A stretch of DNA of 56,748 nucleotides from a virus (lineage: Duplodnaviria; Caudoviricetes). The stretch covers positions 1 through 56,748 of the IMG/VR virus record IMGVR_UViG_3300030329_001316; one strand, written 5' to 3'. The position numbers and the translations under genes are program-made. Under the pieces are notes generated by a model. That model saw only the letters and a program-made list of their open reading frames with translations, had not been told where the DNA came from and made no database searches. This document shows positions 7,401 through 49,488 of this stretch, in pieces. The first letter of the stretch is position 1. The number at the start of each line of letters is the position of its first letter.

Positions 7401-7581
7401 TACAAGAAGAGGAGAGGGTACTCAATTTTTTATAGGACAAATTGATGATTTTAAAATATATAATAAACTTCTTTCAGATGGGGGTGTATCAACTGGAGTT
7501 TCAGATGCAGCCAATTTATCTACAGCAGCAAAAGGAGAAGTATTAAGAAATTATAAAGCAGGTAAAAGGAGTCACAAATAA
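4495..7581 (+). CDS. Multi-LamG tail fibre/receptor-binding protein with intervening CBM-like domains
   Basis: Three LamG repeats (WTVAVWIK..FYVNGV; YSISFWF..WYHCAVT..WYING; WSVEFWFK..WHHIICSY..YINGV..GQIDDFKIYNKLL). Confidence 0.85.
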   Translation: MAATIQTMDKPTRVRGLDTSGNNNHAQIYSGRALEFDGVTDYLSVSGSATPVVFVDYTAESTAANRAWTVAVWIKFDSASTSYQYICGNDTSYADSACSAFLVMTSAEKLAFYDLGASTWRPANTILNSGTWYRAVWVFDGVGTVNFYVNGVADGSGTLTVGDNNNADLVASIIGCRINSGVFENAWTGKMSDLQGWQGAWTQEDITYDYLNPDQLVSNRSNTSIDSSNLKFWYPMNEGHRGNQSYVLDASNTGPVDVISGYGTFTDSSKWSVHASTDANNYWEIDTNAQTMRIVSDGTYIDAAFHDTTILELGQTYKITVEVTNVTSGSIRILPRSGGLNHTPYSQGVLSTVGTHEFYYQSAQKTGIAIARNAACDITIKNLTVEAVNAKHNATTVFYGDEQITDAKNRTGFSSHEWTHYGSASGNINVSGGKLFITCNSSAGAQDNQGAQLAIAKVDAAGGSHPIVAGRTYRIQADLDFTTIADSDLVIKFVLGNNGTTITASDGSPNDGTINATEQTYYADVTTADATGNLRINCTAVTNDSGSDNIFSVDNVSVKEVGTAMGWTDADQQLDIPQTALQSYNQLAWPHGKDSAHVAFSDGDSDLKFTTGAYSISFWFMPNSNTLDGYVLSKGAFNTSGYYVFYDASARTLKYYTNQSSASQANTSSALTLGKWYHCAVTITNSGTVSRWYINGEAETPKTDHTVAVADTRNFQIYNRGGGANNPDFGLTEISIWNKQLSAAEVTEIYNEGLALDATTHSASSNLLHYWRNNGLGTWTDIGKAGSLFNGTPTNITETMLITAGADSSRDSQGFLMNSQRNTECLNLPLIRYDSGGPDLSGSSIVKTEDGVGISDYGASDWSVEFWFKSKTSGEPMFMATHQEASNSAEGWHIRWSSSHTIYFVVSDGTDVLDTAVSNALAVDEWHHIICSYDYSADKKFVYINGVLRQIETDTNIGTIAPDADLHIGTRRGEGTQFFIGQIDDFKIYNKLLSDGGVSTGVSDAANLSTAAKGEVLRNYKAGKRSHK

Positions 7582-35714: not shown

Positions 35715-36054
35715 TCTTCTCTCCTATTAAGTTAATAAAATGATCAAATTCTATTGCTACATAGATTTTAGATCTATTACGTTTAAATACTAATACAGGT
35801 TGTCTATCCTGTGAATTTCCTTCTGCTTGTTCTAAAGAACCCCACAGATTTAGTCTTTCTTGATTTTTACACTCAAAGCTATAAGGTATTACTTTCTTAG
35901 CTGCTGGTGATAATACAATGTCTTCTCCACTCATACCCATAACTTGGGATTCAATATCATTCGTCTCAAGAATCTCCGTATACACAGAGCGAAGGCGATC
36001 CCTCACTAAGTTCTGTAATTTCCTTCCTTTGTTTTTCGCTGAACGCACGTTCAT
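35698..36054 (-). CDS. Holliday junction resolvase-like PD-(D/E)xK nuclease
   Basis: 'SAKNKGRKLQ', 'GEDI', 'FECKNQE', 'PVLVFKRNR'. Confidence 0.75.
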   Translation of the reverse strand: MNVRSAKNKGRKLQNLVRDRLRSVYTEILETNDIESQVMGMSGEDIVLSPAAKKVIPYSFECKNQERLNLWGSLEQAEGNSQDRQPVLVFKRNRSKIYVAIEFDHFINLIGEKNEKQK

Positions 36055-36223
36055 AAGTCCCCTCTCTTACTTTTTTTAAAGCTCTTTCTTGTTGTACTTC
36101 TTTACTATCCCAAACACCTCTACCTAATAAGTAGTTTTCATCTTCTTCATCAGGATGTAGGTCTTTATATGTTTCTATCATAGTATCAATCTGTTTCTTC
36201 AATTTCATTAGGTCTTCTATCAT
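35966..36223 (-). CDS. Hypothetical protein
   Basis: GGAGG RBS; long overlap with the resolvase makes the C-terminus doubtful. Confidence 0.45.
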   Translation of the reverse strand: MIEDLMKLKKQIDTMIETYKDLHPDEEDENYLLGRGVWDSKEVQQERALKKVREGTYERAFSEKQRKEITELSEGSPSLCVYGDS

Positions 36224-36243
36224 AATATGCCTCCATTATTATT

Positions 36244-36312
36244 AAAGCGCAATCCCTGCATACGAAACATCGTTTACTTAAAGGAGATACCTGATATACA
36301 GGGACACACTTT
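36244..36312 (-). promoter_or_regulatory. Intergenic stem-loop
   Basis: On the - strand AAAGTG..TCCCTGTATA pairs with TATGCAGGGA..CGCTTT. Confidence 0.45.
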
Positions 36313-36445
36313 ATGTTACATTTCTTACAATTAGTCACGAGAAATCCACCAAGGACTATCTTTCAATATTCTTGCCCTTCTTTTATGAGTAGTTTCCTTT
36401 TTAGGATTCTTTTCTCTGTGTTCAATTATTTTTTTAAGTTGTTTT

Positions 36446-36637
36446 TTAGTCAATTTCTTTTCCATTGAATTTCTCCACTATTTTATCATATAGAGGATGT
36501 TGAATAGCTTCTTCAACAACAGGTGTTCCATATTGAGACATAGCCCAAGCTGATTCTTCTATCCATATACAGTTTTCACAACCTTTACATTCTCTCATAT
36601 GTTTTTGTGCTTCTTCTGTTTGTGCATACCAACTCAT
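36446..36637 (-). CDS. Small protein with CxxCxxC and DnaX(tau)-C-terminus-like tail
   Basis: 'ECKGCENC'; ends 'EEAIQHPLYDKIVEKFNGKEID'; AAGGAGG RBS. Confidence 0.5.
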   Translation of the reverse strand: MSWYAQTEEAQKHMRECKGCENCIWIEESAWAMSQYGTPVVEEAIQHPLYDKIVEKFNGKEID

Positions 36638-36885
36638 TTCTCCTCCTTAGCTTTTTCTTCATTCTTTTTAGCTTGTGCTTCTATAAGTTCATTAAGATAT
36701 TCTTTAAACTTCTCATCTTCACCACCAAATTCTATATAAGCTAAAAGAAGATCACTTATAGATTTAACTGATTCACCAAGTTGAGTCATATAATTCGCTA
36801 AGAAGTCAAATCTTCTTTGTATTTCTTTATTAGTTATATTTTTATTCTTTCCCATGTTCCCTCCTAATTTATTAGGGTATAACAT
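36634..36885 (-). CDS. Hypothetical coiled-coil protein (start probably MGKNK)
   Basis: AGGAGG before the internal ATG. Confidence 0.55.
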   Translation of the reverse strand: MLYPNKLGGNMGKNKNITNKEIQRRFDFLANYMTQLGESVKSISDLLLAYIEFGGEDEKFKEYLNELIEAQAKKNEEKAKEEK

Positions 36886-36956
36886 ACCGTTTTAAGCCAT
36901 GTTAATATAATCGCTTATTACTATATCACCCCGACTATACATTATACCCTAAATTG

Positions 36957-37241
36957 TTATGATAATTTCCAAGTATGTACAAGTTTACCGTATCTACCTA
37001 GTTTTTTAGTATTAGTTTTTGTTAATTTACCAGCATTAGTTAAGTCTGTAATAGCTCTTCTAATGCTTGTTATAGGCCAACTAACCTCTTGATCATGTGC
37101 AAAATCTTCAATATCAAATGGTGTAAGACCTTCATTTGGATATGTTTCAAATACAGCTAGAATCAAATCCTCTTGTTTTGTTGAAGTATTTCTACTTCTT
37201 TGCAGAGTTTCCCCTGTTTCATCATTAGTATTGTAATACAT
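36957..37241 (-). CDS. Winged helix-turn-helix DNA-binding protein
   Basis: 'GLTPFDI...PITSIRRAITDLTNAGKLTKT...GRYGK...W' wHTH pattern. Confidence 0.7.
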   Translation of the reverse strand: MYYNTNDETGETLQRSRNTSTKQEDLILAVFETYPNEGLTPFDIEDFAHDQEVSWPITSIRRAITDLTNAGKLTKTNTKKLGRYGKLVHTWKLS

Positions 37242-37248
37242 ATTTCTC

Positions 37249-39006
37249 CTAACTTGTTTTCTCTATTCTAACGTTATTAACACTTAATCTAGCATATAAA
37301 TGTTCTTTTTCTCTATTCTTATCAGATTTAATATCAATCATTTCAACTAAACCTGTTTCCTTATTCTTAAAAGGTTTTAGAGATATAAGTTTATTAGCAT
37401 TATACGCTATTCTAAACGAACCTCTAGAAGACGCTATATCCATACCTTCTTTGAAGGCTGCTTTACTTACTTCACTTACAGCAAATACTATAACATTTTG
37501 TCTTACTGCAAGTTCCATAATAGCTTGAGAAGCTTCTTCAACTTTCATGTTGTTATCTTTCTGTTTGCTCTTAAATAGCCCCAAATGATCAATAATTACT
37601 ATTTCTGGCTTAACAGGTAGCATTGTGATCCTTCTTTCTAATTCATGGGCATATGGAGCTGAATAGTCAACAGTAAGCCATTCAAAGCGTTTATCCATAC
37701 CATTTTTCATCTGTTTGTAATGTTCAGATAATTGCTGTTCATCCCATCCCATTTCTATTTGAACAAATCTAGACCATATTTGTCTTGGAGACATCTCCAT
37801 TTCAACAAAATACGTTGGTCTTTTGAAGTAATTTACCCAATTTTGAAGCAACATAGTCTTCATACTAGCAGGTGGAGCTTGTAATATAACTGTCTCACCT
37901 GGATATACTGGGAAACTTTGACCATATGGCTCACCTAGGTTAAGAGGTTTAAGATCCTGAGCGTAGAAGTTTATAAGTTCGTTCTCCATACTACTAGAAT
38001 CCATCATATTTTCACCCTTTATACCTCTATGTAAGGTACATTTAGAGTCACAATAAAACTTTATAACTGGATCATCACCACCATATCTATAACCTTGACC
38101 ATCATGTCCAGTATAACAACCTTCTATTATACCTTCCATTTCTTCAGGTTTAAATGGTTCGTCATCTAAACTTACTTTCTGTCTCCAATTTTCCATAATT
38201 AATCTTACTATATCTTCAGTAAAGTTCCATCTTAAGTGTGATGCTAACCTTAAAGCCACCATATGACGTTTACCCTTAGGTGCTCCATCCATCATTTTCT
38301 GTATACATGTAGTATTTACAGGGTCTCTACTATCTTTAACTTTTATGGGTGTATTTTCTTTAGGTTTTTCTTTATCTAATACATCAAATACTTCATTGTT
38401 ACACTCTAAAGTATGTTCTAATTCTATATCTCTTGGCTCTTTACACCATTTGTTAATAGTTCTTTCTAACACACTATTTTCATACAATGCTTTTTGTGGA
38501 AATGGAGTCTTCCATAAACCAGACTTAGTATTTTTAGTATTTGGTACACGTATTAATCTAGATTTATCAGTAACAGATGGATCAGCATACTCAAATATAC
38601 CATGTTTAGTAAGCTCTTCTTTAACTCTTATATGTAAATTCTTACTAGGTTTCCATTTAAAAGCTGATTCTGATATATGTATATGAAATCCTCTACCACT
38701 AAAGTAAACATAGTATGGAACAAATAGTTCATCTAAGCGTACAAGCAATGCTGCAGTCTTTTGTGATGCTTCCCAAACACTTTCACCATCTACATCTAAT
38801 ATAAACTCATTAGGCATATATATTAAACCATCATATCCAGATATAGTGTTATTTTGACTATAATACTCTAATACAGATTCATCATAATTATATAAAGACA
38901 TGAATGTATCTGAATCCATGCCTTGTAATTCTATTAATTCTTCTTCTCTTTGGAAATTATGTCTATTAGTAACTCCAAAAGCTACTTCTCTTATCATTTT
39001 AACCAT
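37249..39006 (-). CDS. Primase-helicase: AEP primase-polymerase + PriCT-like region + SF4 (DnaB-like) helicase
   Basis: AEP motifs 'LDVDG', 'FSGRGFHIH', 'D...RLIRVPNT'; helicase 'APPASMKT', 'EMEMS', 'IIDHL', 'RGS', 'KNR'. Confidence 0.85.
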   Translation of the reverse strand: MVKMIREVAFGVTNRHNFQREEELIELQGMDSDTFMSLYNYDESVLEYYSQNNTISGYDGLIYMPNEFILDVDGESVWEASQKTAALLVRLDELFVPYYVYFSGRGFHIHISESAFKWKPSKNLHIRVKEELTKHGIFEYADPSVTDKSRLIRVPNTKNTKSGLWKTPFPQKALYENSVLERTINKWCKEPRDIELEHTLECNNEVFDVLDKEKPKENTPIKVKDSRDPVNTTCIQKMMDGAPKGKRHMVALRLASHLRWNFTEDIVRLIMENWRQKVSLDDEPFKPEEMEGIIEGCYTGHDGQGYRYGGDDPVIKFYCDSKCTLHRGIKGENMMDSSSMENELINFYAQDLKPLNLGEPYGQSFPVYPGETVILQAPPASMKTMLLQNWVNYFKRPTYFVEMEMSPRQIWSRFVQIEMGWDEQQLSEHYKQMKNGMDKRFEWLTVDYSAPYAHELERRITMLPVKPEIVIIDHLGLFKSKQKDNNMKVEEASQAIMELAVRQNVIVFAVSEVSKAAFKEGMDIASSRGSFRIAYNANKLISLKPFKNKETGLVEMIDIKSDKNREKEHLYARLSVNNVRIEKTS

Positions 39007-39094
39007 CTAAATCCTCCCAATTCTCATGTACTAACCATATAAATAATATTGATATTACCCATATTACTGCAAGAATACCTATAAAAGTTATCAT
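38999..39094 (-). CDS. Tiny membrane peptide (31 aa)
   Basis: MITFIGILAVIWVISILFIWLVHENWEDLDG; AAGGAGG RBS; overlaps the primase start. Confidence 0.5.
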   Translation of the reverse strand: MITFIGILAVIWVISILFIWLVHENWEDLDG

Positions 39095-39252
39095 TTGCCC
39101 TCCTTTCTGAGCCTCATTTGATGCTCATATCTAGCTCTTTTGATCTTCATACGTATAGTTAAGTGGGTGTAATTATCACCCTTTAAGTTTTGCCCTAATT
39201 TTAGTTCTTTAGGGTCTATATTAATAAAATGCATAAACTCTGTTGCTCTCAT
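39091..39252 (-). CDS. Small basic hypothetical protein (53 aa)
   Basis: MRATEFMHFINIDPKELKLGQNLKGDNYTHLTIRMKIKRARYEHQMRLRKEGK; ATGA overlaps at both ends. Confidence 0.55.
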   Translation of the reverse strand: MRATEFMHFINIDPKELKLGQNLKGDNYTHLTIRMKIKRARYEHQMRLRKEGK

Positions 39253-39314
39253 AATTCCCCTCTAATTAATTCATCAATTAAAAACCAAATTAGTATTATT
39301 AAACAAAATATCAC
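39249..39314 (-). CDS. Tiny hydrophobic peptide (21 aa, GTG start)
   Basis: MIFCLIILIWFLIDELIRGEL; AAGGAGG RBS; ATGA coupling. Confidence 0.4.
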   Translation of the reverse strand: MIFCLIILIWFLIDELIRGEL

Positions 39315-39328
39315 ATATCCTCCTTGTA

Positions 39329-39358
39329 TATAGGGAGAGTTGTTATACCCTCCCTATA
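39329..39358 (-). terminator. Stem-loop downstream of SSB
   Basis: TATAGGGAG...CTCCCTATA inverted repeat. Confidence 0.5.
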
Positions 39359-39377
39359 ATTAACGATTACCTACTCA

Positions 39378-39914
39378 CTAGAAAGGTATATCGTCACTCT
39401 CGGAGGACTCAGAAGTTGTTGGTTCTTCTGATTTCTTGTTTTCCACTTTGGGTAAAACAAATGCCTTGTAATAGCTTTCGGCTTTACTTTTCCAATAATC
39501 AACATCAGATTGATTAAAAGATTCAGCAGCATTTTCAAACACTGTAGGAGCTGTTCTATTTAATATCTTTGAATATTTACCATCTTTATATAGATAAACA
39601 TTCATTTTCTTGCCTATTAAAGCTTCAGGGCTATCATCCATCTTTAATACTTTAGTTCCATCAGGACCTTCTAATGCGTTACTTATACCTGCATTAGCGA
39701 ATCTATACATTTGACCGATAGCAAATTCTTCACCATCAGCGCCAGTTTTAGCATAAACTCTCATATTAAAGTTCTCTGGATAGTCATCAAAGTATACATC
39801 TATGCATTTATTACCATTCCATTCAGCATATTCTGCTTTAGAAACTAATAATTCATGCCATCCAGTGTTATATTGGTTGTTACCACCACCAGATTTAATT
39901 GTTAAAGTTCTCAT
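39378..39914 (-). CDS. Single-stranded DNA-binding protein-like
   Basis: Acidic tail ending DDIPF; lies between ERF recombinase and primase-helicase. Confidence 0.7.
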   Translation of the reverse strand: MRTLTIKSGGGNNQYNTGWHELLVSKAEYAEWNGNKCIDVYFDDYPENFNMRVYAKTGADGEEFAIGQMYRFANAGISNALEGPDGTKVLKMDDSPEALIGKKMNVYLYKDGKYSKILNRTAPTVFENAAESFNQSDVDYWKSKAESYYKAFVLPKVENKKSEEPTTSESSESDDIPF

Positions 39915-39929
39915 TTATTCTCCTTTTAG

Positions 39930-40433
39930 TTAACTAATAGATTGAGCATCATCATCATATTGTGCTATACCTACCATAGCAGATAATCCATATCTTCTAC
40001 CATAAGTTACAGCTGCTCCAACGCCTTGTGCGTCTACTTTAGCCAACGGAAGTTTTATTTTACTTCTCATCCACTGACCTGATGCATGCATTAATGTTGT
40101 GGTTACACATACAGCGCCTTTAATTACTTCATTACCTTGACTAACAGATAATCCATTTTTAGATAAATATGGAAATGAAGATTTAATTACTGCATGTAAG
40201 TCTGCATAACTAGACTTAAAGAATGGATTTGTACTTTCTTTCTTTGCACCTTCCATTTCAGACTGAGCTTTAGCTAATGCTTCAGCTAGTTTATCTATTT
40301 CAGGCGATTTCCATTCATCATGTCTTCTATCATGTGCTGTGTCAAAAGATTTCTCTTCTGCTTCATTTTTGGCCTTTGCTTCTAATATATCTTTAGCAAT
40401 GCCATTTTGTTTAGAAACGTCAATATTATTCAC
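39930..40433 (-). CDS. erf: ERF-family ssDNA annealing protein (start probably GTG 40433)
   Basis: 'ALAKAQ...NPFFKSSYADL', 'QGVGAAVTYGRRYGLSAMVGIAQYDDDA'; AGGAGG upstream of the GTG. Confidence 0.9.
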   Translation of the reverse strand: MNNIDVSKQNGIAKDILEAKAKNEAEEKSFDTAHDRRHDEWKSPEIDKLAEALAKAQSEMEGAKKESTNPFFKSSYADLHAVIKSSFPYLSKNGLSVSQGNEVIKGAVCVTTTLMHASGQWMRSKIKLPLAKVDAQGVGAAVTYGRRYGLSAMVGIAQYDDDAQSIS

Positions 40434-40453
40434 GAACTTCCTCCTATTTGAAT

Positions 40454-40480
40454 GAATGGGGCAGATAGTCCACCCCATTC
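40454..40480 (-). promoter_or_regulatory. Stem-loop between E1 and ERF genes
   Basis: GAATGGGG...CCCCATTC inverted repeat; a second one, CCTTCG..CGAAGG, near 40504-40517. Confidence 0.45.
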
Positions 40481-40526
40481 TGTGTGCTATACGTTTAAGA
40501 AACCTTCGAATCGAAGGGCTTATAAT

Positions 40527-41186
40527 TTAAGAAACTAATTTCTTTTTATCAAGTATTAATGTTGAAAAGTTGAAAATTATTTCCTTAAAGTAAGGTTGTT
40601 TCATAACTATGTTCTTAATAGAATTAGATATAAAACTTCCACTCATATTACTACAATAAGATGTAGCTTTACGAGTGCATGGTTCAGGATCAGAATCTTC
40701 ATCAGAATACCAATCCTTCTCATACTTTTTAACAGTAATATTATCATATATATACTGTTGATATTGCTCTGCACCCATCCTACCATCTATAACAAATGAT
40801 GGTTTATCAGGGCATTGTGTTATCAATTTCACTATTTCCATACGAGCAGACATACTGTCTAATCCAAGTACTAATATGTCATCTTTCGTGCCTTCATAGT
40901 ATTTAAATTTACTATTTGAAAGCTCAACCTCAATAGAGCATTCTATTTTTTTAATATGTGTATATAAAGCATCTACTTTAGTTTTACCAATATCTTCTTC
41001 TACATATTGACTAACACCTACGTTTTCTATTCCTACTTTATCAAAATCATATAGATAGAAACTATTAGCACCAAGTCTTGCTAATTGTGTGGCTACGGAG
41101 CTTCCAATAGCCCCGCAACCTACAATGTGAAACTTAATACCCGATATATCTGCTATATCTTGACTTCTCATATTTCTCATAGCCAC
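40527..41186 (-). CDS. ThiF/MoeB-family E1-like ubiquitin-activating enzyme
   Basis: GCGAIGS nucleotide loop, 'YDFDKV..EN', 'IGKTKVDAL', 'GLDSMSAR', 'IDGRMG', candidate catalytic Cys170 in 'PEPCT'. Confidence 0.92.
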   Translation of the reverse strand: MAMRNMRSQDIADISGIKFHIVGCGAIGSSVATQLARLGANSFYLYDFDKVGIENVGVSQYVEEDIGKTKVDALYTHIKKIECSIEVELSNSKFKYYEGTKDDILVLGLDSMSARMEIVKLITQCPDKPSFVIDGRMGAEQYQQYIYDNITVKKYEKDWYSDEDSDPEPCTRKATSYCSNMSGSFISNSIKNIVMKQPYFKEIIFNFSTLILDKKKLVS

Positions 41187-42142
41187 ATACCTCCATAACT
41201 TTGGTTATAACATGCACTATCTATTAAAGCCTCAGCTATTGATTGATACTTAGGATCAATAACATGTATTAACTCATATGGTTCAGAATCCATACCAAGA
41301 AACTCTTTTAATTCTGCTTTATTAAGTTTATCTATCTCTATACCATAAGGTTCTAGCTGTTCATTAGTATGATTTATAGCTGTTTTAAACTTATGCATAT
41401 TCCATGCACCAGTATTTACTTGTCTAATATATTCAGCTATTTTACCCATTGCATACTCCCATTTAGCTTCAAATGTAGCAGCTTCTGCTTCTGTTGGTTC
41501 AATTTGTGTACAATCATCCTCTAATAGTTTGTAATTACCAGACATACCTCTACTATCATACCAACTATGTAAACTTAATTGTTTACCATTAGATGGTAGT
41601 TTAGTATAGCCAGTTTGATAAGAACTTAATGATCTAACTCTACACTTAGCTTTAACTTCAGTTACTATTTCAAGAGGTATTTCTACATCTTCTTTACCAA
41701 CTATCTCAAGTTCAACATCTTGATGGACCTCTAATGGTTTCCATACAGATATTCGACACTTATATTCTTCTTTAAGATTAACAACAAGAGCAAATGATAG
41801 ATCAGATTCTCCTTCACCATATTCATCTATACTAGATAGATCAGTACCACTCCAGAATGCTCCCATTGTGTGATGACTATGCCACCAACAGAATCTAAAG
41901 TTAGTATCCTTGTATTTTACAGCCATTTGTGTATAGTATTTAGCCAAATCTTCTTTATCAAGGTCACAAGTAGTGGCACCTATCTCTTGATTCATGATTT
42001 GAGGGTCTTCTATCCACCAATCACCATCTTTGTCTTGAGTAACTACACTCATACCACCTATTTCAGCTTTTTCACCATGATAAGCAGCTTTTGCATAGTT
42101 TATTATCTTATCCCAACAGTCTTTTAAGATATATACTTTCAT
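41177..42142 (-). CDS. JAB/JAMM (MPN+) metallopeptidase with C-terminal extension
   Basis: E27 ('EIGG') and H88-S-H90-x7-S98-x2-D101 ('WHSHHTMGAFWSGTD'). Confidence 0.9.
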   Translation of the reverse strand: MKVYILKDCWDKIINYAKAAYHGEKAEIGGMSVVTQDKDGDWWIEDPQIMNQEIGATTCDLDKEDLAKYYTQMAVKYKDTNFRFCWWHSHHTMGAFWSGTDLSSIDEYGEGESDLSFALVVNLKEEYKCRISVWKPLEVHQDVELEIVGKEDVEIPLEIVTEVKAKCRVRSLSSYQTGYTKLPSNGKQLSLHSWYDSRGMSGNYKLLEDDCTQIEPTEAEAATFEAKWEYAMGKIAEYIRQVNTGAWNMHKFKTAINHTNEQLEPYGIEIDKLNKAELKEFLGMDSEPYELIHVIDPKYQSIAEALIDSACYNQSYGGMWL

Positions 42143-43470
42143 TCTTCCTCCTCATTACGTTCGTTAATATGTTGTCTAAGTTCTTCAAGGTACGCCTCAT
42201 CCAGGCTTTCTTCCTGCTCACGATCACCTTGTATTGGCTGAAAACCACTATTTATATTACTTGTTGATGTGTTTACACCACCCATTCTAGTAGCCCATTG
42301 CAAGGTCATTTGTTCAGCTTGTTCTGGTGTTACTGGTTCAGGATGAGCATATTTATATTTCTCACATTGAGATCTAAATGTACATTCTTGTACATCACAG
42401 TAATCATTATGTCCATCTGGTTCATAATTACATTGATCTATATTATTTGTGCCAAACACTTTTCTGTATTCTTCAGATAGTTTAGCTGGTTCACCATGAT
42501 ACATCTGTTTAATATTGTTATGCGGACCTGTTATATTAGTATAAGTTGTAGCCCAATTAACAGATTGTAATACAAATGAAGCCATATCATACCTATTTAA
42601 TGCATTATATATATCATTTGCTTGATCACCATAACATACATTATTACCAAATATACCTGCTCTATAACCTCTACTACCAGATATAAATGGATATGCTAGA
42701 TAACCTTTCTCATCTGGTTGATCTACTTGACCTAATGTTTGAACACTAAAGCTTGGACAATCATAATTAGCATGTCTGGTCATAGTTCTAAGTGGATATG
42801 TAATATTATTAATATACAAATCTGTGCTACATTCTATATTTTCTATATGTTTAGCTTCACGTTCACTTTCTCTACCTGATGTCATATATACTTTCATTAT
42901 ATCTGGTCTTATTCTAAGTGTACTCACTAACATATATCTTTGACTAGAACGTGCATTTGGATGAACAAATAATTGATGATACATTTCTTGCATTATATCT
43001 ATATTATCTATCAATTCATCAGCCATTTGTATCTTTTCAGACATATAATTAGCATACAAGTTCTTTCTTTCAACAAGAATATCTGGGTCATCTAACCATA
43101 CTTCGCCTTGATATCTTAAATGATATAATATATTATCAATTTCTCTTAAAGATGCTTTTATTCTCTCCCATGAATGATTCTTAAACCAATCTTCTCTACT
43201 TAAATAATTATACATACCACTAGGTTTTCTTCTAAATCCAAGACCTCTCATCATAAGTTCAGCTACTCTTTCATAAGAACCACGCTTCCACTTAAATGTT
43301 TTAGTAATTTCTAAGTCACCTCTATATCTACTATTAAATTGTTGTAATTTTTCCATTACTTCAGCTTGAGGGCCATAATATACATGTTCCCCAAGATCTT
43401 CTACTTCTATCTCTTCTATGCATTGTTCTATTGTTCCATCTACAATGCAGTCATAATCTCTAAAATCCAT
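42139..43470 (-). CDS. Putative E2-like (UBC-fold) conjugating protein with C-terminal Cys cluster
   Basis: 'AYPFIS...NNVC279YGD...IYNAL...NWATTY' resembles prokaryotic E2 HPxI...CxG plus helices; lies between Ubl and JAB. Confidence 0.6.
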   Translation of the reverse strand: MDFRDYDCIVDGTIEQCIEEIEVEDLGEHVYYGPQAEVMEKLQQFNSRYRGDLEITKTFKWKRGSYERVAELMMRGLGFRRKPSGMYNYLSREDWFKNHSWERIKASLREIDNILYHLRYQGEVWLDDPDILVERKNLYANYMSEKIQMADELIDNIDIMQEMYHQLFVHPNARSSQRYMLVSTLRIRPDIMKVYMTSGRESEREAKHIENIECSTDLYINNITYPLRTMTRHANYDCPSFSVQTLGQVDQPDEKGYLAYPFISGSRGYRAGIFGNNVCYGDQANDIYNALNRYDMASFVLQSVNWATTYTNITGPHNNIKQMYHGEPAKLSEEYRKVFGTNNIDQCNYEPDGHNDYCDVQECTFRSQCEKYKYAHPEPVTPEQAEQMTLQWATRMGGVNTSTSNINSGFQPIQGDREQEESLDEAYLEELRQHINERNEEEE

Positions 43471-43496
43471 ATACCCTCCAAGGTTAATAAGTTAAT

Positions 43497-43562
43497 CCAG
43501 ACAGAAGCATTCTTAGTGTGTCGTTGTCAAATTCGCCATTTCTCACTAGTGCTCCTGCCTGG
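43497..43562 (-). promoter_or_regulatory. Structured RNA element between Ubl and E2-like genes
   Basis: On the - strand CCAGGCAGGAGCA pairs with TGCTTCTGTCTGG (13 bp with G-U); inner TAGTG/CACTA stem. Confidence 0.6.
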
Positions 43563-43579
43563 TACGTTATAACGTAATT

Positions 43580-43798
43580 TTACTGATCACCACCTGATTT
43601 GTTGTTATTAACAGCTGCAACAATATCACCTTCTTCAATAGCATGTGTATTTGTTACAGATACTCCATTAACAGCAACAGATGAGCCAGAAGCTATATCA
43701 TCTGGAAACTCATTTCTTAGTTGTTCAACAGTATCAGCGTTAGTTTGTCTCTCTACAAAGCCGCCACCTTGTAGAAATTTGATTGTTTTAGTTGCCAT
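43580..43798 (-). CDS. Ubiquitin-like beta-grasp protein (ThiS/MoaD/Ub fold), 72 aa, ending GG-DQ
   Basis: 'TVEQLR', 'VAVNG', 'IEEGDIV', 'KSGG-DQ'; AAGGAGG RBS before MATKTIK. Confidence 0.85.
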   Translation of the reverse strand: MATKTIKFLQGGGFVERQTNADTVEQLRNEFPDDIASGSSVAVNGVSVTNTHAIEEGDIVAAVNNNKSGGDQ

Positions 43799-43994
43799 GT
43801 GGGCCTCCTTTTTCATATGATTGGATTGATTTGTACTCATCAGCTAACTGATCAAAATAGTCATCAATTAGTTTGTAGTTATTTACTATTTGTTTCTCAA
43901 CTGTTTCTTTTACTTCACCATTTAGGTATTTAACAGTTTTCTTTAATATTACTGTATTTGCTTCAATATTGCCTATATCCATGAGATAGCCCAT
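43788..43994 (-). CDS. Hypothetical protein
   Basis: ORF track; overlaps the Ubl start. Confidence 0.5.
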   Translation of the reverse strand: MGYLMDIGNIEANTVILKKTVKYLNGEVKETVEKQIVNNYKLIDDYFDQLADEYKSIQSYEKGGPHGN

Positions 43995-44098
43995 TTAAAT
44001 ATATAATACCAACATCCTAGACTAAATGTCACTATAACTGCATATATTAACCAATTAGGCAATTTCATTATAAAATCTACTAGCCTGCTATCTTTCAT
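43973..44098 (-). CDS. Small membrane protein (41 aa, not in ORF track)
   Basis: MKDSRLVDFIMKLPNWLIYAVIVTFSLGCWYYIFKWAISWI; ATGA overlap with upstream gene. Confidence 0.55.
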   Translation of the reverse strand: MKDSRLVDFIMKLPNWLIYAVIVTFSLGCWYYIFKWAISWI

Positions 44099-44340
44099 AA
44101 ACCCATCCTCCCTGACATTCTCTTAACAATATCATTTAGTTTATCTACTTCATCACATGCATATTGACAATTATTGGCTACAATTTCAAGTTTAGCACTT
44201 AAATCTATAATTTCTTCTCTTGTTACCTTATCACCAGAGTTTATAGCTTTGTTTGCTTTACTAAAGAAAGATTTCTTCTGTTCTTCCTTCTTTTCATTTA
44301 ATTCCTTAGTTTTATCTTCATTTTTACTGAAAATACCCAT
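44095..44340 (-). CDS. Hypothetical coiled-coil protein
   Basis: AAGGAGG RBS; ends 'RMSGRMGL'. Confidence 0.6.
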   Translation of the reverse strand: MGIFSKNEDKTKELNEKKEEQKKSFFSKANKAINSGDKVTREEIIDLSAKLEIVANNCQYACDEVDKLNDIVKRMSGRMGL

Positions 44341-44467
44341 TATGCCTCCTTTATATCGATTAATTCATCGATTAGTTTATTTTCTTTTATTCTAAGACTA
44401 GCTTGCTTATTTTTAAGTTCTATAAGATCTTTTATCACATCTTCTTCAGTTCTTATAGGTGTAAATG

Positions 44468-44983
44468 TTAACATATCTCAAATCCTCCTGATTCTAGACA
44501 AAACTTAGCAAAATTCTCTACATTATCTTGTGAAAATGGATAACTAGACATAAATCTCTTATTTTCATCATCATCTTTAGCTAAATTCTCATTTCTGGTC
44601 TTAATATGCTTCTCCCATCTCTTAACAGTGCCATCTTTGAGTAATATTTCTAGTTTTGTGCCTATTTTAGCAGCTGTTTCTTGATCTATTAGCCTGCCAT
44701 CATTCCAATTTCCACCTTCTATTTGCTTTTCAGTCATAAAATCACTACATTGCATACAAACAAAGTCCCATAATGGTCTCCACCACCATACATTATTACG
44801 AAAATATACTCCAGGATTAGCTTTATGATAGTCATCCATCTCATTAAAGTATTTTTTACGCTTTTCTTCGTCTTCACTCTTCCACATATCACTATTTTCT
44901 CGATAGTATTTATACTCAGTATCTGGTTTGTGTATTATTGGGTTAACACCCCCTAAATCAAAGCCCATTTTAATATCCTCCAT
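44468..44983 (-). CDS. Conserved phage hypothetical protein ('YFRNNVWWWRPLW...FCLESGGFEIC')
   Basis: Distinctive motifs; probable start MGFDL after GGAGG. Confidence 0.65.
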   Translation of the reverse strand: MEDIKMGFDLGGVNPIIHKPDTEYKYYRENSDMWKSEDEEKRKKYFNEMDDYHKANPGVYFRNNVWWWRPLWDFVCMQCSDFMTEKQIEGGNWNDGRLIDQETAAKIGTKLEILLKDGTVKRWEKHIKTRNENLAKDDDENKRFMSSYPFSQDNVENFAKFCLESGGFEIC

Positions 44984-45046
44984 ATTTTTTCTATGTTTTT
45001 TCTTATTTTCATGATATTTATAGTAAATGATATATATATCTCAGCA

Positions 45047-45250
45047 TAATAGGGCTAATTGACCCTCGTTAGTGTATTAGTCTCTAAACGACTAATTGGC
45101 TGAAACCCACACAATGAAGTGTTATATCAGCTTTACTAGTATATAGGTACATTGCTACACTCGCCTGTCACTACAGCCCTATTAAATATAACAGCCTACT
45201 CGACCACTTTTTCAGGTCCTTTTGCCTCACTACCCATTTCCCTCGGCTGT
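45047..45250 (-). ncRNA. Candidate structured RNA
   Basis: 10-bp closing stem TAATAGGGCT/AGCCCTATTA enclosing ATTAGTC/GACTAAT and GCTGA/TCAGC stems; adjacent ACAGCC/GGCTGT stem. Confidence 0.45.
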
Positions 45251-45258
45251 CATGTCTC

Positions 45259-45420
45259 CTACCAATTCTCTGCTTGTTCTACTACTTCTCTAATCTCTAT
45301 CTCACACTCTTGACATACAGGATCATCTTTATCATGCCAATTACTATCACATACACCACATAATCTACCACCTAAGCCAACCATAAGTTTGTATACTACT
45401 TCATTTATCTGAGTTGCCAT
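45259..45420 (-). CDS. Small zinc-finger protein (53 aa)
   Basis: MATQINEVVYKLMVGLGGRLCGVCDSNWHDKDDPVCQECEIEIREVVEQAENW; GGAGG RBS. Confidence 0.65.
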   Translation of the reverse strand: MATQINEVVYKLMVGLGGRLCGVCDSNWHDKDDPVCQECEIEIREVVEQAENW

Positions 45421-45577
45421 ACTTATCCTCCATGTATTGTTTTAGTCTCTTTTTAGTACTAAGATATTTTCTTACCATTTCAGTTCTATGTTTATCAGGT
45501 ATATTTCTATCACACCTATCACAGAATAGTTTTTGTAGAGATGTCATCTTATCACTACAATAGATACACTTCATCAT
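45401..45577 (-). CDS. Small zinc-finger protein (58 aa)
   Basis: MMKCIYCSDKMTSLQKLFCDRCDRNIPDKHRTEMVRKYLSTKKRLKQYMEDKYGNSDK; AAGGAG RBS. Confidence 0.65.
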   Translation of the reverse strand: MMKCIYCSDKMTSLQKLFCDRCDRNIPDKHRTEMVRKYLSTKKRLKQYMEDKYGNSDK

Positions 45578-45612
45578 ATCATCTCCTTATTGGTTAAGAG
45601 TTTAAATAATTA

Positions 45613-45810
45613 TTGAGCAGTTTGTAGGGGCTTTCAGCACAATTACATCTATCGCCATAGATAACTATCTAAAGCATGCTCAGGCTAGAGACTGTGGTTG
45701 GCGTCTCATCTCCGTATTAGGGAACCTTTTGAGTGTTTAACTCTAGGCATTCATTGCACTTTTAATGCTGACAGTTTGCGTTACTGCTTAACAATTACAC
45801 CTACGTACGA
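45613..45810 (-). ncRNA. Candidate structured RNA (~200 nt)
   Basis: No ORF; stems TGAGCA/TGCTCA, ATCTAT/ATAGAT, GAGAC/GTCTC, GAGT/ACTC, GCATT/AATGC, GTAGG/CCTAC. Confidence 0.4.
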
Positions 45811-45831
45811 AATCTTCACATTTAATTTATT

Positions 45832-46240
45832 GAGTTGTGGCGGGATTTGGGTTACCCGCATGCTACCATATTAATATTGGCAGTGTTTCATCTACAAGAG
45901 TGATCAAGTATGCTACTCCTATCTCCATTAGGGCTGGTCACCCCGATAGGTCGTCACATATGGCTAGTTAAACCATAGACTAAATAATGCATCATGCTTT
46001 AATGTAAGTCCTGCTTACCGTATACACATTGTCTATTTCTAGACTGATGCACCCACTGGACAAGGATTCCCTTATCTAATTATTTGGTACAACAACTGTT
46101 CTAGCTTCTACTAGTTCTATAACACCACTTGATGTTACAGCGAGCACTACCTCTAACAGTCTACCTGCACACTCCTTATCAGAATGCTCCACAGGTTTCA
46201 CATCGTTAATCCACAGGTGATCAGGCCTGTATCATAACTC
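45832..46240 (-). ncRNA. Candidate large multi-domain structured RNA (~410 nt)
   Basis: Ends pair (GAGTT/AACTC); nested stems ATCAAGT/ACTTGAT, TGCATCA/TGATGCA, GTAAG/CTTAC, GTCTA-GAAA-TAGAC (GNRA on - strand), ACAGG/CCTGT, GCGGG/CCCGC. Confidence 0.55.
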
Positions 46241-46485
46241 TCAAATCTATCTCATTATTCATTGTATTATGTTGGTCACTTATAATACATAGCTAGTGTA
46301 CTAATGTGCCGTTTGTTATCTTACTAATGTTTGGTATAAGTTTATATATATAATGTACACAGGCATACACGCACAGATACTAGCATGATTCTTCATTCTG
46401 TGTAAAAAGCAGTATCTTATACATATATACACTGTATACACTATAATGTTGTTAAATTGTTCATTAAAGGACGAAATGCTAGGTA

Positions 46486-46785
46486 TTAAGTACCCAGCAT
46501 CTCATCAACTTCAGACAACTCTTCACCAAGAGAGTCTATCGCTTCAGTAGTTGGATCAAGCAACTCTAAACCATGCTTAGCTGCTATGTTCACCACTACC
46601 TGGAAGTGAGTAGACCACTTCTGTAGTACCTGTCTTTGCGAAGGAGTCTGCGTTCTAAACACAGGATCCCAACCAGACTTAGTACCAGCAGTAGCTAACT
46701 CCTTGAACATCTTAGATAAAGTGCGTTCATACTCTGCAGCCAACACCTTATGTGCTGTCTTATGTTTAATTAATCCTCTTGACAT
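46486..46785 (-). CDS. Hypothetical protein, first gene of the early strand
   Basis: AAAGGAG RBS; 99 aa. Confidence 0.65.
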   Translation of the reverse strand: MSRGLIKHKTAHKVLAAEYERTLSKMFKELATAGTKSGWDPVFRTQTPSQRQVLQKWSTHFQVVVNIAAKHGLELLDPTTEAIDSLGEELSEVDEMLGT

Positions 46786-46874
46786 ATAGTCTCCTTTAAG
46801 TTATTAAGATAATTTATTTTATCTCATAATCATTTATTTTAAATCAAAAATAACGTAATTTCCATTTTGGAAAT

Positions 46875-46890
46875 CCACCCGATAGGGTGG
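46875..46890. promoter_or_regulatory. GC-rich hairpin CCACCC-GATA-GGGTGG at the early/late divergence point
   Basis: Perfect 6-bp inverted repeat in very AT-rich DNA, next to TTCCA-TTT-TGGAA. Confidence 0.5.
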
Positions 46891-46952
46891 GTGTGTAATA
46901 TAATACCACATACTAAAATTGCACAATTTTTAAAAGTTGCCTAAAATAAACC

Positions 46953-46981
46953 TTGTTTTTAAATAATCCGTTTAATAAATT
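46953..46981 (+). promoter_or_regulatory. Sigma70-like promoter TTGTTT-N17-TAAATT for the packaging operon
   Basis: Matches 18762-18790. Confidence 0.6.
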
Positions 46982-46987
46982 TTGTCT

Positions 46988-47164
46988 ATGAAAAAGTATA
47001 TACTTACTATAATGTATAATGAAACAAATGATACTGTTGAATGGATACAGGAAGAACTTGAAGATATAGAGGTACTTACTGAGATAACTGAAGCTGATAT
47101 AGCGAAGTTAACTATCGAAGATGTAGATGCGATAATGTTAGATAAAGATTATGCAAAGGCATAG
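46988..47164 (+). CDS. Small acidic protein (probably leaderless, ATG 46988)
   Basis: Track ORF 46982..47164; ATG lies 7 nt after the -10 box, no SD. Confidence 0.55.
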   Translation: MKKYILTIMYNETNDTVEWIQEELEDIEVLTEITEADIAKLTIEDVDAIMLDKDYAKA

Positions 47165-47171
47165 ATCTAGC

Positions 47172-47195
47172 GCCCCCTTGACGGGGGCTTTGTTT
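47172..47195 (+). terminator. Intrinsic terminator-like hairpin directly before terS
   Basis: GCCCCC-TTGAC-GGGGGC followed by TTTGTTT. Confidence 0.6.
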
Positions 47196-47197
47196 AT

Positions 47198-47929
47198 ATG
47201 AGAGTATATAAAGTAAATAAAATAGAGCATACAGTTTTCGATGAAATAGATGAAGTACCTACTAATATCAACATCGTAAGTGACTGGCGCAGTGGTCAGA
47301 TAGGCGACTGGGTTAAGGCTGATGATGGGTGTTATATACAAATATTGCGCAAAGGTAAGATGGTCGTGCCGAAAGGGCGGAACAAGGTTAGGGAATATGT
47401 AGGCACGTGCACTGGGACTTTTCCAGTAACCTCCAAGGCGAAGATGGACACTTCGCGCAGACTCAACATTTACTCCTTTGGAGGGAGTAAGAGTTCTGCA
47501 GACGTTCTGCTAGATCGGACCGTACTAAGTAAGCATGAGCATCTCTTTGTTGTATATATAGCATCAGGACTTTCTCCTCAAGAAGCTTATATGAAGGCTT
47601 TTCCTACTGTTAATCCAGGATATGCTAAGCATAAGTCTGCTCAACTAGTTAAAACAAAAAGGATAACAACTGCTATGAAAGAAGAATTAAAGCCTATATT
47701 AGAAGAAATAGGTGTAGATGAAAAAGCGATATTAGAGAATATTAATAATATAGCACTTACTTCAGATAAAGATGAGACTAGATTAAAAGCATTATTTAAG
47801 CTATCTGATATAATGGACTTAGAGGATAAAAATAGAACTACAGTTACACAAGTATCTGGAGCATTATTTCAAGGATTTAAAAATAAAGATTTATTAACTG
47901 CTGAAAGACCAAAGGAAATAACTGAATAA
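47198..47929 (+). CDS. terS: Terminase small subunit-like protein
   Basis: C-terminal HTH 'FVVYIASGLSPQEAYMKAF...SAQLVKTKRI' and 'RLKALFKL'; upstream of terL. Confidence 0.6.
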   Translation: MRVYKVNKIEHTVFDEIDEVPTNINIVSDWRSGQIGDWVKADDGCYIQILRKGKMVVPKGRNKVREYVGTCTGTFPVTSKAKMDTSRRLNIYSFGGSKSSADVLLDRTVLSKHEHLFVVYIASGLSPQEAYMKAFPTVNPGYAKHKSAQLVKTKRITTAMKEELKPILEEIGVDEKAILENINNIALTSDKDETRLKALFKLSDIMDLEDKNRTTVTQVSGALFQGFKNKDLLTAERPKEITE

Positions 47930-49488
47930 TGGAAATGGTTGTAGATAGAGGACATAAGTTAGGGCAACCAGCTAGTCCAACGTGGGAAGAAAGTGTAGAA
48001 ACTGCAGGTAGCGTATATAATGCTTTATCTAAACCTTTACATGTTGGTTTGGATATGCTTAGTTATTTTCCTCCTGCTGATTTAGCTCACTCAGCTCTTT
48101 ATGCCGCAGAAGGTAGTCCTGGTATGGCCGCATTATATGCAGGTTTCTCTATTCCAGGATTAGGAGATTATGGTCAAGCAGGTCATTTAATTCATAAATA
48201 TGCTACAGCTCCTATACGTGTTCCAATGGGTAGGTTATGGACTAATGTAAAAATGCCAGTTGGATATGAATTACCAAGAATTGCTGATTTAAAAGGTGAT
48301 ACTGGGTCTTATTTTAAAGGTATAAAAACAGCATTATGGGATGATAAACCATTATGGTTACATAGATTAGATCATGATGCTTTTAAACTTGGTGATGATT
48401 TATATGCAAAAGAACTTACTAAAGGAAAAGGTGGGCCAATAATGAAACATATAGGCACCCACAATCAAGCAGTTAATAAGTCTGAATCACTTCTAAATTA
48501 TAAGTGGAGTGGAGATATAGAAGATATAGCAGCAAGGTATCATTTAAATAGAGCAGTATGGGGTTTGGGTGATAAAGCATTTAAAGGTACAAGACAAATA
48601 TATAATCCAAAGGCTGCGACAACTAAAAGGTATGAAAACGTTAAATATAATATAAAAAGAGGCGATATATTTAGAGAAGCAAAATCTGTTAATCCTTCTG
48701 ATAAAAAATACAAAGATTTAGGTAAGTTATGGGAATTTAATACTGATACTGAAATAGGTAAAAGATTATATAAAAATTGGAATGCTTTATTCACTAAACC
48801 TGGTTATGATAGGTATCATCCTATATTTGGTAATTTTGGAGTAACTACTAAAGATGGATTAAAACGTATGACAGATCCTACTGGAGAGTGGGATTTTGGT
48901 ATAAAAAGAGCATATAGTCGTGGTCCAACTGTAAAACAATTAGGAGAGACTGGTTCAAAAGGTTACACAAAAGATATGAATCTTTTTCATTACATAGTTT
49001 CAAATGATCTATATAAACATTTAAAACCGTTACCTATGTATGATAGAATGTTTGATACATGGGATTTTGCTCTTAATAATCCTACATGGGCAAATATATT
49101 TTCAAGTCCTACGAGTTTTGCAAGACACTATGGCTCTAAATTGTTCGGTTTAAGCCCTGTAAAAGTAATACAAGATGTGCCAGAGACATTAACGTATTCA
49201 AAATTAGGGGAAGATATATGGCTTCATCATGGGATAGTAGGTTTATTTAAACCAAAATATTTAAAAAATCTAGATCCTTCAAATTTAAAAACAAGAATAA
49301 GGCCACAGGATTTAAAATCGAAAGCAAGAAACATTAAACAACAGATGATTCAGAATCCATATCCTGCTGTAATAAATAATCCTTTTGGTAAATTCAAAGG
49401 GACAACAGGTAGGAGATTAAATTCTAAATCAAAACTTAAAAATTTTGAACGCAAACAATGGAATCATCCAAATCCTTTTGATAAATAA
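47929..49488 (+). CDS. Polymorphic-toxin-like protein with pre-toxin TG-like N-terminus and basic C-terminal region
   Basis: 'LHVGLDMLSYFPPADLAHSALYAAEGSPGMAALYAGFSIPGLGDYGQAG' resembles the PT-TG consensus. Confidence 0.5.
   Translation: MEMVVDRGHKLGQPASPTWEESVETAGSVYNALSKPLHVGLDMLSYFPPADLAHSALYAAEGSPGMAALYAGFSIPGLGDYGQAGHLIHKYATAPIRVPMGRLWTNVKMPVGYELPRIADLKGDTGSYFKGIKTALWDDKPLWLHRLDHDAFKLGDDLYAKELTKGKGGPIMKHIGTHNQAVNKSESLLNYKWSGDIEDIAARYHLNRAVWGLGDKAFKGTRQIYNPKAATTKRYENVKYNIKRGDIFREAKSVNPSDKKYKDLGKLWEFNTDTEIGKRLYKNWNALFTKPGYDRYHPIFGNFGVTTKDGLKRMTDPTGEWDFGIKRAYSRGPTVKQLGETGSKGYTKDMNLFHYIVSNDLYKHLKPLPMYDRMFDTWDFALNNPTWANIFSSPTSFARHYGSKLFGLSPVKVIQDVPETLTYSKLGEDIWLHHGIVGLFKPKYLKNLDPSNLKTRIRPQDLKSKARNIKQQMIQNPYPAVINNPFGKFKGTTGRRLNSKSKLKNFERKQWNHPNPFDK

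Follow-up and report, generated by a model that had tools for sequence, protein, structure and literature searches.

A candidate ubiquitin-like conjugation cassette with an E2-like protein and a single-domain E1 in the replication module of a tailed phage

Bacterial conjugation of ubiquitin-like proteins (Ubl) has so far been characterised as a weapon of the host against phages (Bil and Cap2/Cap3; such a role is suspected for Bub), and this action against phages is described in the cited passages of PMC10557695 and bioRxiv 10.1101/2023.09.04.556158. The cited passages of Iyer et al. 2006 (PMC1779556) also describe bacterial or plasmid operons for an activating enzyme (E1), a conjugating enzyme (E2) and a JAB peptidase, and those of bioRxiv 10.1101/2021.07.29.454249 report E1 homologues only for viruses of Asgard archaea. 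Full-text literature searches, with subscription journals and supplements outside their scope, gave no description of a set of E1, E2, JAB and Ubl in tailed phages of bacteria. A candidate for such a set is presented here. The window, i.e., the whole stretch of DNA analysed, is the entire IMG/VR record IMGVR_UViG_3300030329_001316 (Duplodnaviria, Caudoviricetes; 56,748 bp; completeness of 100% as estimated by CheckV). At 40527-43798, on the minus strand, it contains four co-directional genes, which encode in this order a Ubl, an E2-like protein of 443 residues, a JAB peptidase and an E1. All the features of the cassette given below are on this strand.

The reading that we prefer, to which a probability of about 0.65 is given, is that of a phage-borne Ubl conjugation cascade, with a gene order like that of Bil and a single-domain E1 like that of Bub or UBA5. 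The domain identities, the conservation of the catalytic motifs, the operon structure, the co-conservation of the genes and the phage context are directly supported. A first reading of this DNA made from its letters alone (hereafter the sequence-only reading) had described four co-directional genes of which the last three overlap, and this is what is found. The Ubl gene (43580-43798, 72 residues) is followed by a spacer of 109 nt (43471-43579) containing the GGAGG ribosome-binding site which precedes the start of the gene for the E2-like protein (42139-43470). The latter overlaps by 4 nt with the JAB gene (41177-42142, 321 residues), which itself overlaps by 10 nt with the E1 gene (40527-41186, 219 residues, GTG start). 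The Ubl start at 43798 is preceded by AAAGGAGG, and a longer in-frame open reading frame (ORF) up to 43840 is without such an upstream site. A terminator-like hairpin is localized 10 nt past the E1 stop (40503-40517); it comes from a consensus scan only, which gives 7 sites in the region for 3.2 expected.

The four genes were followed in a synteny set of 36 distinct IMG/VR loci having a relative of the 443-residue protein. Wherever a locus has 500 nt or more upstream (30 loci), the Ubl is encoded, and wherever it has 3,500 nt or more downstream (26 loci), JAB and E1 are. The complete set is present in 24 of the 36 loci, the other 12 being cut by contig or locus ends. The synteny search in IMG/VR that accompanied the sequence-only reading as a proposed check thus finds the genes co-conserved. 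The order kept is Ubl, E2-like protein, JAB, E1, ERF, single-stranded DNA-binding protein (SSB) and primase-helicase, and the cassette is always beside these replication genes. This is also the case in the window, where a location in the replication arm had already been recognized. In a single locus (L031) the Ubl gene is placed after the E2-like gene. With the block of genes conserved in dozens of phage contigs, the operon is far beyond chance. In loci whose E2-like protein has an identity of 43-83%, that of the Ubl is 86-99%, i.e., a near-invariant Ubl goes with a fast-evolving E2-like protein, and at the level of sequence this is a ubiquitin-like pattern of conservation.

The relatives of the 443-residue gene come from marine metagenomes, including Tara fractions <0.22 um, and mostly from contigs of ~50-59 kb. 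The family pattern, scanned over 185,579 prokaryote genomes, matched 23 times, and no relative is encoded at any of these matches. No match was obtained by tblastn of the 443-residue protein and of a distant member of its family (P0095) against 50,697 phage records, nor by megablast of window positions 36000-48000. In some relatives the E2-like and JAB genes are separated by additional genes (L021:2699-3574 and L021:3646-3936; also L016, L022, L003, L010 and L027). One inserted gene, as in L021, encodes a radical SAM protein of the spore-photoproduct-lyase type (Pfam SPL, E 3.4e-21); another encodes ~95-107 residues, with an acidic linker, a terminus made of [I/M]YGG plus 2 residues and no Pfam match. 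In one locus (L028:4890-6400) the E2-like gene is split, one ORF covering profile positions 2-300 and a second, overlapping one 270-419, by frameshift or sequencing error. Upstream of the Ubl gene, two small genes (44468-44983, 171 residues; 43788-43994, 68 residues) are kept in many related loci and are without family match.

The 443-residue protein is made of an N-terminal helical region (1-125), a UBC/RWD-fold domain (~125-335; 42466-43098), a cluster of four Cys, a helix ending with WATRMGG and a variable acidic tail. A word-based search gave 43 relatives, 27 of which were aligned with the window protein (28 sequences). An exhaustive profile search gave 480 cluster representatives at E <= 0.001, 126 of them at E <= 1e-30. 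From 148 newly listed representatives, the 118 with at least 380 residues were kept and the 30 shorter ones were dropped as fragments, leading with the window protein to a set of 119 diverse members. Cys279 (codon 42634-42636), the candidate catalytic Cys of the E2-like domain, is invariant in 28/28 sequences of the first alignment, in 16/16 sequences of a second alignment and in 119/119 diverse members. Pro316 is equally present in the 119 members, Trp306 and Pro261 in 113 of them each. The E2-like motif pair YPFIS...VCYGD, pointed out in the sequence-only reading, is localized at residues 260-264 (42679-42693) and 278-282. The family consensus at the first site is [H/F/Y]-P-[Y/F]-[I/V]-S, i.e., HPN-like, and the whole signature reads [H/F/Y]-P-[Y/F]-I-S ... 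[V/I]-C-x-G-[D/N] ... W. E2 enzymes have the pattern HPN-I ... I-C-L ... W. The spacing between Pro261 and Cys279 is variable, from 11 to 64 residues in the 119 members.

The AlphaFold2 (AF2) model of the full-length protein has a mean predicted local distance difference test (pLDDT) of 73. The model of residues 125-335 only has a pLDDT of 86 and a predicted template modelling score (pTM) of 0.83. The sequence-only reading depended on a UBC fold in this protein, and residues ~125-335 are indeed modelled with a fold of UBC/RWD type, the UBC arrangement being a helix at the N-terminus, then an antiparallel sheet and, at the C-terminus, helices. In the exhaustive VIA-align search with the domain model, the best 50 matches are all of E2, RWD or UEV type, with Z values of 4.9-7.1 and alignments of 102-143 residues over model residues 7-204. 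Among these 50, 35 are titled as E2/UBC enzymes (including BilB, 8tyz_C, Z 5.2, and I215L of African swine fever virus) and 4 as RWD; the others (Knl1, Ltn1/RQC, FANCL, VPS37A, BRISC, SEA and Mediator) are entries which we take to be RWD/UEV-type modules. The full-length model gives the same E2/RWD picture. Because the Z values are modest, the E2 argument rests on (i) the uniformity of this list, (ii) the coverage of whole E2 chains and (iii) the sequence signature. In the order of secondary-structure elements of the model, Cys279 is directly before the first helix past the sheet, which fits the placement of the Cys in E2 enzymes. As a lead only, a viral Atlas cluster with Prok-E2_D in 13% of its members has a score of 0.84 to the 443-residue protein.

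The flanks of this domain are less uniform. The four Cys (C347, C358, C363 and C369; 42364-42432) are invariant in the 28-sequence and 16-sequence alignments; in the wider family C347 is found in 100/119 and C363 in 96/119 members. The model confidence is low in this region, and the cluster is a candidate for a single zinc site, with putative metal binding. WATRMGG (residues 392-398; 42277-42297) is invariant in the near clade, where it is followed by the variable acidic tail, and is not conserved in the wider family. Its interpretation as a universal second modifier tail is weakened accordingly, the motif being missing from most of the wider family. The JAB protein of the near clade ends with [Y/N]GG plus 3 residues (41180-41200), i.e., a second GG-plus-tail beside WATRMGG, and neither of the two is conserved in the distant clade. 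Short motifs common to clades, i.e., TSTGNIHGGE, PIQGDREQ and ENPEPNNLEEE, occur in the variable tails of the E2-like proteins (42139-42276 in the window, and in relatives). Three distant homologues end in Phe, reminiscent of the terminal DDIPF of the SSB-like protein encoded nearby (39378-39914).

Concerning the Ubl, a beta-grasp protein of 72 residues with a C-terminal GG had been proposed. The size and the GG stand, and the protein is ThiS-like, but the GG is not terminal: the protein ends with KSGG-DQ, i.e., Gly69 and Gly70 (43589-43594) and two further residues. Both Gly are invariant in 16/16 sequences, NK[ST]GG is invariant even between clades that are 34-47% identical, and the relatives have non-conserved tails of 2 to ~30 residues past the GG. 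The Ubl would thus need trimming. Pfam ThiS matches the window Ubl at E 0.0032, below the cut-off, and 14/16 relatives at E <= 0.01 (best 9.4e-5). The nearest Atlas clusters are viral ThiS-like clusters (a lead only). The Ubl profile searched against the Protein Data Bank (PDB) sequences gives only non-significant matches to MoaD and ISG15 (E 0.47-1.7). These hints suggest that the window Ubl is the precursor of a ThiS-like beta-grasp modifier.

The JAMM motif had been described as intact, and Glu27 (42062-42064), His88, His90, Ser98 and Asp101 (H88-x-H90-x7-S98-x2-D101, 41840-41881) are invariant in 18/18 JAB sequences. The PADLOC JAB model matches the window protein at E 3.5e-8. Prok-JAB matches it at E 9.7e-5 with 22.7 bits, below the cut-off of 25, and matches 18/18 relatives at E <= 0.01. 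The catalytic domain covers residues ~1-150, the C-terminal ~170 residues (~150-321) being without known family.

The last gene encodes, as read from the sequence, an E1 of ThiF type: Pfam ThiF (PF00899) is matched at E 2.5e-18 with 66.6 bits, above the cut-off of 28.1. Invariant in 17/17 phage sequences are the Gly residues of GxGxxG (G23, G25 and G28, in the nucleotide-binding loop G23-C-G-A-I-G28, 41103-41120), Asp110, Arg115, Tyr155, Cys170 and Cys178. Cys170 (40677-40679, in EPCTRKATSYC), in the predicted crossover-loop region, is the candidate thioester site proposed before; with Tyr155 it is also kept throughout an alignment that includes the crAss-like and Fpv3 homologues (12/12). The E1 consists of one adenylation domain, without a distinct CYS or UFD domain. 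Its 219 residues are too few to accommodate these or a further adenylation domain, hence an E1 of the MoeB/ThiF/UBA5/BubCD type. It is the smallest E1 of such a cascade met in this analysis.

Several points weigh against a conjugation cascade. No family was found for the 443-residue protein in Pfam (E <= 0.1), NCBIfam, PHROGs or PADLOC, and the single-family searches of the window with UQ_con (PF00179) and Prok-E2_D (PF14460) gave no match at E <= 10. In the wider family, 76 of 77 scanned members are without Pfam match. With the profile of the family alignment, no meaningful match was obtained among the PDB sequences. The fold search proposed with the sequence-only reading is answered in two ways: the VIA-align list consists of E2, RWD and UEV-type folds, but with Foldseek neither the full-length nor the domain model has a PDB match at E <= 0.001. 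The VIA Z values (up to 7.3) are within the range also reached by unrelated models, and according to the tool Z < 8 can be due to chance. The E2 identity is thus suggested by a modelled fold (Z up to 7.1 for the domain) and by motifs, with no E2 sequence family. In the signature, the Asn of HPN is replaced by Tyr or Phe. The position of Cys279 at the catalytic site of UBC is a prediction from the order of the elements. Tyr155 of the E1 is as invariant as Cys170, which makes two candidates for the nucleophile, and the cited passages of PMC11601596 describe a Bub E1 of single-domain type whose nucleophile is a crossover-loop Tyr. The parts of the cascade that are assigned are the Ubl, the E2-like protein, JAB and E1; none is assigned as a target, a reader or an E3. 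Finally, E1, Ubl and JAB also occur together in sulfur-carrier pathways.

This last point leads to a different use of the same chemistry. The Ubl could be a sulfur carrier, trimmed by JAB, adenylated by the E1 and made into a thiocarboxylate that donates its sulfur to the modification of nucleic acids or of a cofactor, the Cys of the 443-residue protein serving for a persulfide relay or in part of the modifying enzyme. CysO/Mec+, QbsE/QbsD and TtuB/TtuC are examples of such a pathway. Sulfur carriers trimmed by a JAB are known (cited passages of PMC1779556). The match of the Ubl to ThiS agrees with this use, as does the position of the cassette among genes of DNA metabolism. The E1 has 23 NCBIfam matches, all far below the cut-offs, and none of the equivalogs (ThiF, MoeB, PRTRC_ThiF, UbaA, Cap2) is reached; the best ones are to ThiS adenylyltransferase (76.5 bits for a cut-off of 159). 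Nevertheless, 56 ORFs of the window were scanned at E <= 0.001-0.1 and gave no domain of rhodanese, cysteine desulfurase, ThiG, MoaE or PP-loop thiolase, i.e., no sulfur-handling enzyme; the sequence-only reading had likewise stated that genes for ThiG, MoaE, rhodanese and tRNA thiolase are absent. In addition, a sulfur carrier leaves unexplained why its constant partner has a UBC/RWD fold and an E2-like motif pair, and conservation is much higher in the Ubl than in its enzymes. This use is retained as a minor possibility.

The second alternative concerns the 443-residue protein only, which would be a non-catalytic adaptor of RWD/UEV type binding the Ubl or the E1, with a structural Cys, any conjugation then falling to the E1 alone or to a host factor. 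Among the structural matches, the non-catalytic RWD domains of Knl1 (Z 7.1-7.3) are at or above the E2 enzymes, and no E2 sequence family is matched. RWD domains have a YPxxxP motif, and the near clade also has YP rather than HP. However, position 260 is His in 85 of the 119 members, Phe in 27 and Tyr in 4, i.e., the wider family is mostly HP. Moreover, the single Cys kept in all 119 members is within [V/I]-C-x-G-[D/N], at an E2-like place in the order of the model elements. The chance left to an adaptor is slender.

The cassette could also be a device of interference, in which JAB and E1 strip or sequester the modifiers of host Bil, Bub or cyclic-oligonucleotide-based anti-phage signalling systems (CBASS), or in which the Ubl is a decoy that jams the host cascade. 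Bacterial Ubl systems do act against phages (cited passages of PMC10557695; bioRxiv 10.1101/2023.09.04.556158), the E2-like protein evolves fast, and the PADLOC models of Cap2 (E1-E2) align with the phage E1 at E 1.4e-16, only over its N-terminal half (residues ~2-131). A decoy or a deconjugase would not require all four parts, and these are kept in 24/24 complete loci; a near-invariant Ubl is in keeping with a modifier that has many own partners. Interference is thereby judged distinctly improbable. As for an E1 of the MccB/TcdA type that would adenylate an unrelated peptide or nucleic-acid substrate beside coincidental neighbours, it is suggested by TcdA and MccB, which are with UBA5 (E 3.9e-5) the closest solved sequence relatives (range E 2.6e-5 to 1.5e-4), and is hardly credible in view of the strict co-conservation of the block, the overlapping coding regions and the small protein with an invariant GG tail.

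For the conjugation cascade that we prefer, the following steps are proposed. The JAMM peptidase would trim Asp-Gln past Gly70 of the 72-residue ThiS-like modifier. The E1, presumably a homodimer by analogy with MoeB, ThiF, UBA5 and BubCD, would adenylate Gly70 and would then probably carry the modifier as a thioester on Cys170 of the crossover loop. The modifier would be transferred to Cys279 of the UBC-fold domain, and the flanks of the 443-residue protein (N-terminal helices, four-Cys cluster, acidic tail) would select the targets, so that E2 and E3 would be combined in a single protein. The modifier would finally be attached to Lys residues of host or phage proteins, a modification which JAB may also reverse. 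The cascade would be expressed with the early replication and recombination genes. It could serve to take over the host, to regulate proteins of replication or recombination, or in counter-defence. All the chemical steps, the E1 dimer, the targets and the role are what we infer from the observations above. The complex prediction with two copies of E1, Ubl 1-70 and E2-like 1-340 has a score of 0.02 (mark 0.32), which speaks neither for nor against binding.

Related cassettes were found in other phages. E1 homologues, 29-33% identical, are present in 76 phage records of crAss-like (Bacteroides) phages and of Flavobacterium psychrophilum phages, where they are annotated as ThiF or thiamine biosynthesis. 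In three records (bajarodcaudo virus 1, Fpv3 and cr128_1) a JAB-domain protein is directly upstream of the E1; the cassettes cover L042:1511-5642, L043:1595-5606 and L044:1090-5142, and their genes bear the annotations hypothetical, metalloprotease or ThiF. Upstream of that JAB is a protein of 420-435 residues with an invariant YMHSH...CxGS motif. The BFVD model of the 435-residue protein of cr128_1 resembles the window E2-like domain with a probability of 0.99, and the sole 435-residue coding sequence in the examined stretch of cr128_1 is the gene upstream of JAB. An unnamed BFVD entry, which with 420 residues is as long as the Fpv3 protein and may correspond to it, has a probability of 1.00. 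By hhalign, the 443-residue family compared with the crAss-like 433-residue and Fpv3 420-residue proteins has a probability below 1%. One gene further upstream, a protein of 200-290 residues has its first ~90 residues ending in an invariant K..KSG[G/A], which may be a fused Ubl precursor. These KSG[G/A] proteins have no match to Pfam ThiS or to the Ubl profile built here. The crAss-like and Fpv (Fpv3/FpV4 group) cassettes thus resemble that of the window by an E2-fold protein, a JAB, an E1 and the position in a replication module, but their middle protein is without detectable sequence similarity to the 443-residue family, and their candidate Ubl is longer and without ThiS match. In all three phage groups the cassette is among replication genes (primase, uracil-DNA glycosylase, ERF, SSB). 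Since related cassettes exist in cultured crAss-like and Flavobacterium phages, the question is testable at the bench.

Taken jointly, these cassettes lead to a broader proposal, which is tentative and rather unlikely to hold as a whole. An unrecognised Ubl conjugation system would be standard in the replication modules of probable Bacteroidota phage groups (marine podovirus-like phages with P22 portal and SU10 capsid, Crassvirales, and the Fpv phages of F. psychrophilum). It would use a new and diverse E2 family (at least 480 clusters at 50% identity) and would tag replisome, recombination or host proteins in order to redirect the cell. Within this proposal, E1 and JAB might also act on other GG-tailed proteins of the operon, i.e., the E2-like protein (RMGG plus tail), JAB (YGG plus 3 residues) and the small [I/M]YGG protein, which would parallel the action of Cap2/Cap3 on the CD-NTase tail. 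If a complete cascade is indeed kept by phages, the virus would employ the same chemistry, much as viruses of eukaryotes make use of ubiquitin. The cassette also defines a large unnamed E2-like family together with an E1 of 219 residues, both informative on the minimal requirements of E1-to-E2 transfer.

The rest of the window is that of an uncultured marine tailed phage. Its G+C content is ~33% and its strand blocks are distinct. It encodes small and large terminase, a P22-like portal, a major capsid protein of SU10 type, a scaffold and a lysozyme, and for replication and recombination RusA/PDDEXK, ERF, the SSB-like protein and a primase-helicase. No match to an integrase, already reported as absent from the sequence alone, or to a DNA polymerase was found in the 56 scanned ORFs, and no tRNA gene was found in the window. 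Two ORFs at 3728-7581 have concanavalin-A-like lectin domains (Laminin_G_3; 3 copies in a protein of 1028 residues) and are probably receptor-binding tail proteins. At 12809-35475 very large ORFs are found in series (1360, 619, 511, 465, 2924 and 955 residues) and are without Pfam or PHROG match.

Among the closest known systems is Bil (BilABCD, Types I and II). According to the cited passages of PMC10557695, (i) Bil has the same order Ubl, E2, JAB, E1 with a separate JAB gene; (ii) BilA has a conserved Gly and a short non-conserved tail, which the JAB peptidase BilC cuts off after the Gly, and the phage Ubl has the same pattern with a predicted cleavage; (iii) the catalytic Cys of BilB is past an extended loop, as Cys279 is past a loop of 11-64 residues in the phage family. 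On the contrary, the Bil E1 described in these passages consists of inactive adenylation, active adenylation and Cys domains (IAD-AAD-CYS), whereas the phage E1 is a single adenylation domain. The phage E2-like protein differs also by its extra N- and C-terminal parts and by the absence of detectable sequence similarity to known E2 families, and Bil belongs to bacterial defence islands, whereas the present cassette is carried by a phage in which no integrase was found.

Bub (BubA, BubB, BubCD, BubE) is close by other features. The cited passages of PMC11601596 describe a single-domain E1 without CYS and with a nucleophile in the crossover loop, where the phage E1 has its candidates, and a JAB that exposes the Gly of the Ubl. 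They also describe oxyesters on Tyr (E1) and Ser (E2) and the constant presence of BubE, whereas the candidate residue of the phage E2-like protein is the invariant Cys. Furthermore, JAB and E1 are separate genes in the phage, and DUF6527 (BubE) was not found in the 56 window ORFs. Type II CBASS shares the chemistry of E1, E2 and JAB, and it is through their E1 region that the Cap2 models match the phage E1; however, Cap2 is an E1-E2 fusion which conjugates a CD-NTase without Ubl, and no CD-NTase or CBASS effector was found in the window scans. For the ParB-related, ThiF-related cassette (PRTRC), which combines a ParB-related protein with PRTRC_A to F, no model reaches its cut-off (PRTRC_ThiF has 33.5 bits with the E1 for 144.75), and no ParB domain is found in the scanned window ORFs. 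As judged from these comparisons, the phage cassette lacks at least one defining feature of each of Bil, Bub, PRTRC and CBASS.

Outside these bacterial systems, UBA5-UFC1-UFM1, MoeB and ThiF resemble the cassette by a minimal E1 of homodimer type, and a UFC1 fusion entry (7nvk, Z 5.3) is among the fold matches of the full-length model; they differ in that only the Rossmann part aligns with UBA5 and that the phage E1 has no UFM1-interacting tail. In phages, the nearest likeness is that of the tail-assembly pair TAPI (Ubl) and TAPK (JAB) in lambdoid phages and T1-like ones, where a phage encodes a Ubl having a C-terminal Gly next to a JAB (cited passages of PMC1779556). TAPI and TAPK are localized in the tail module with no E1 or E2, whereas the cassette of the window belongs to the replication module and comprises the complete set of enzymes.

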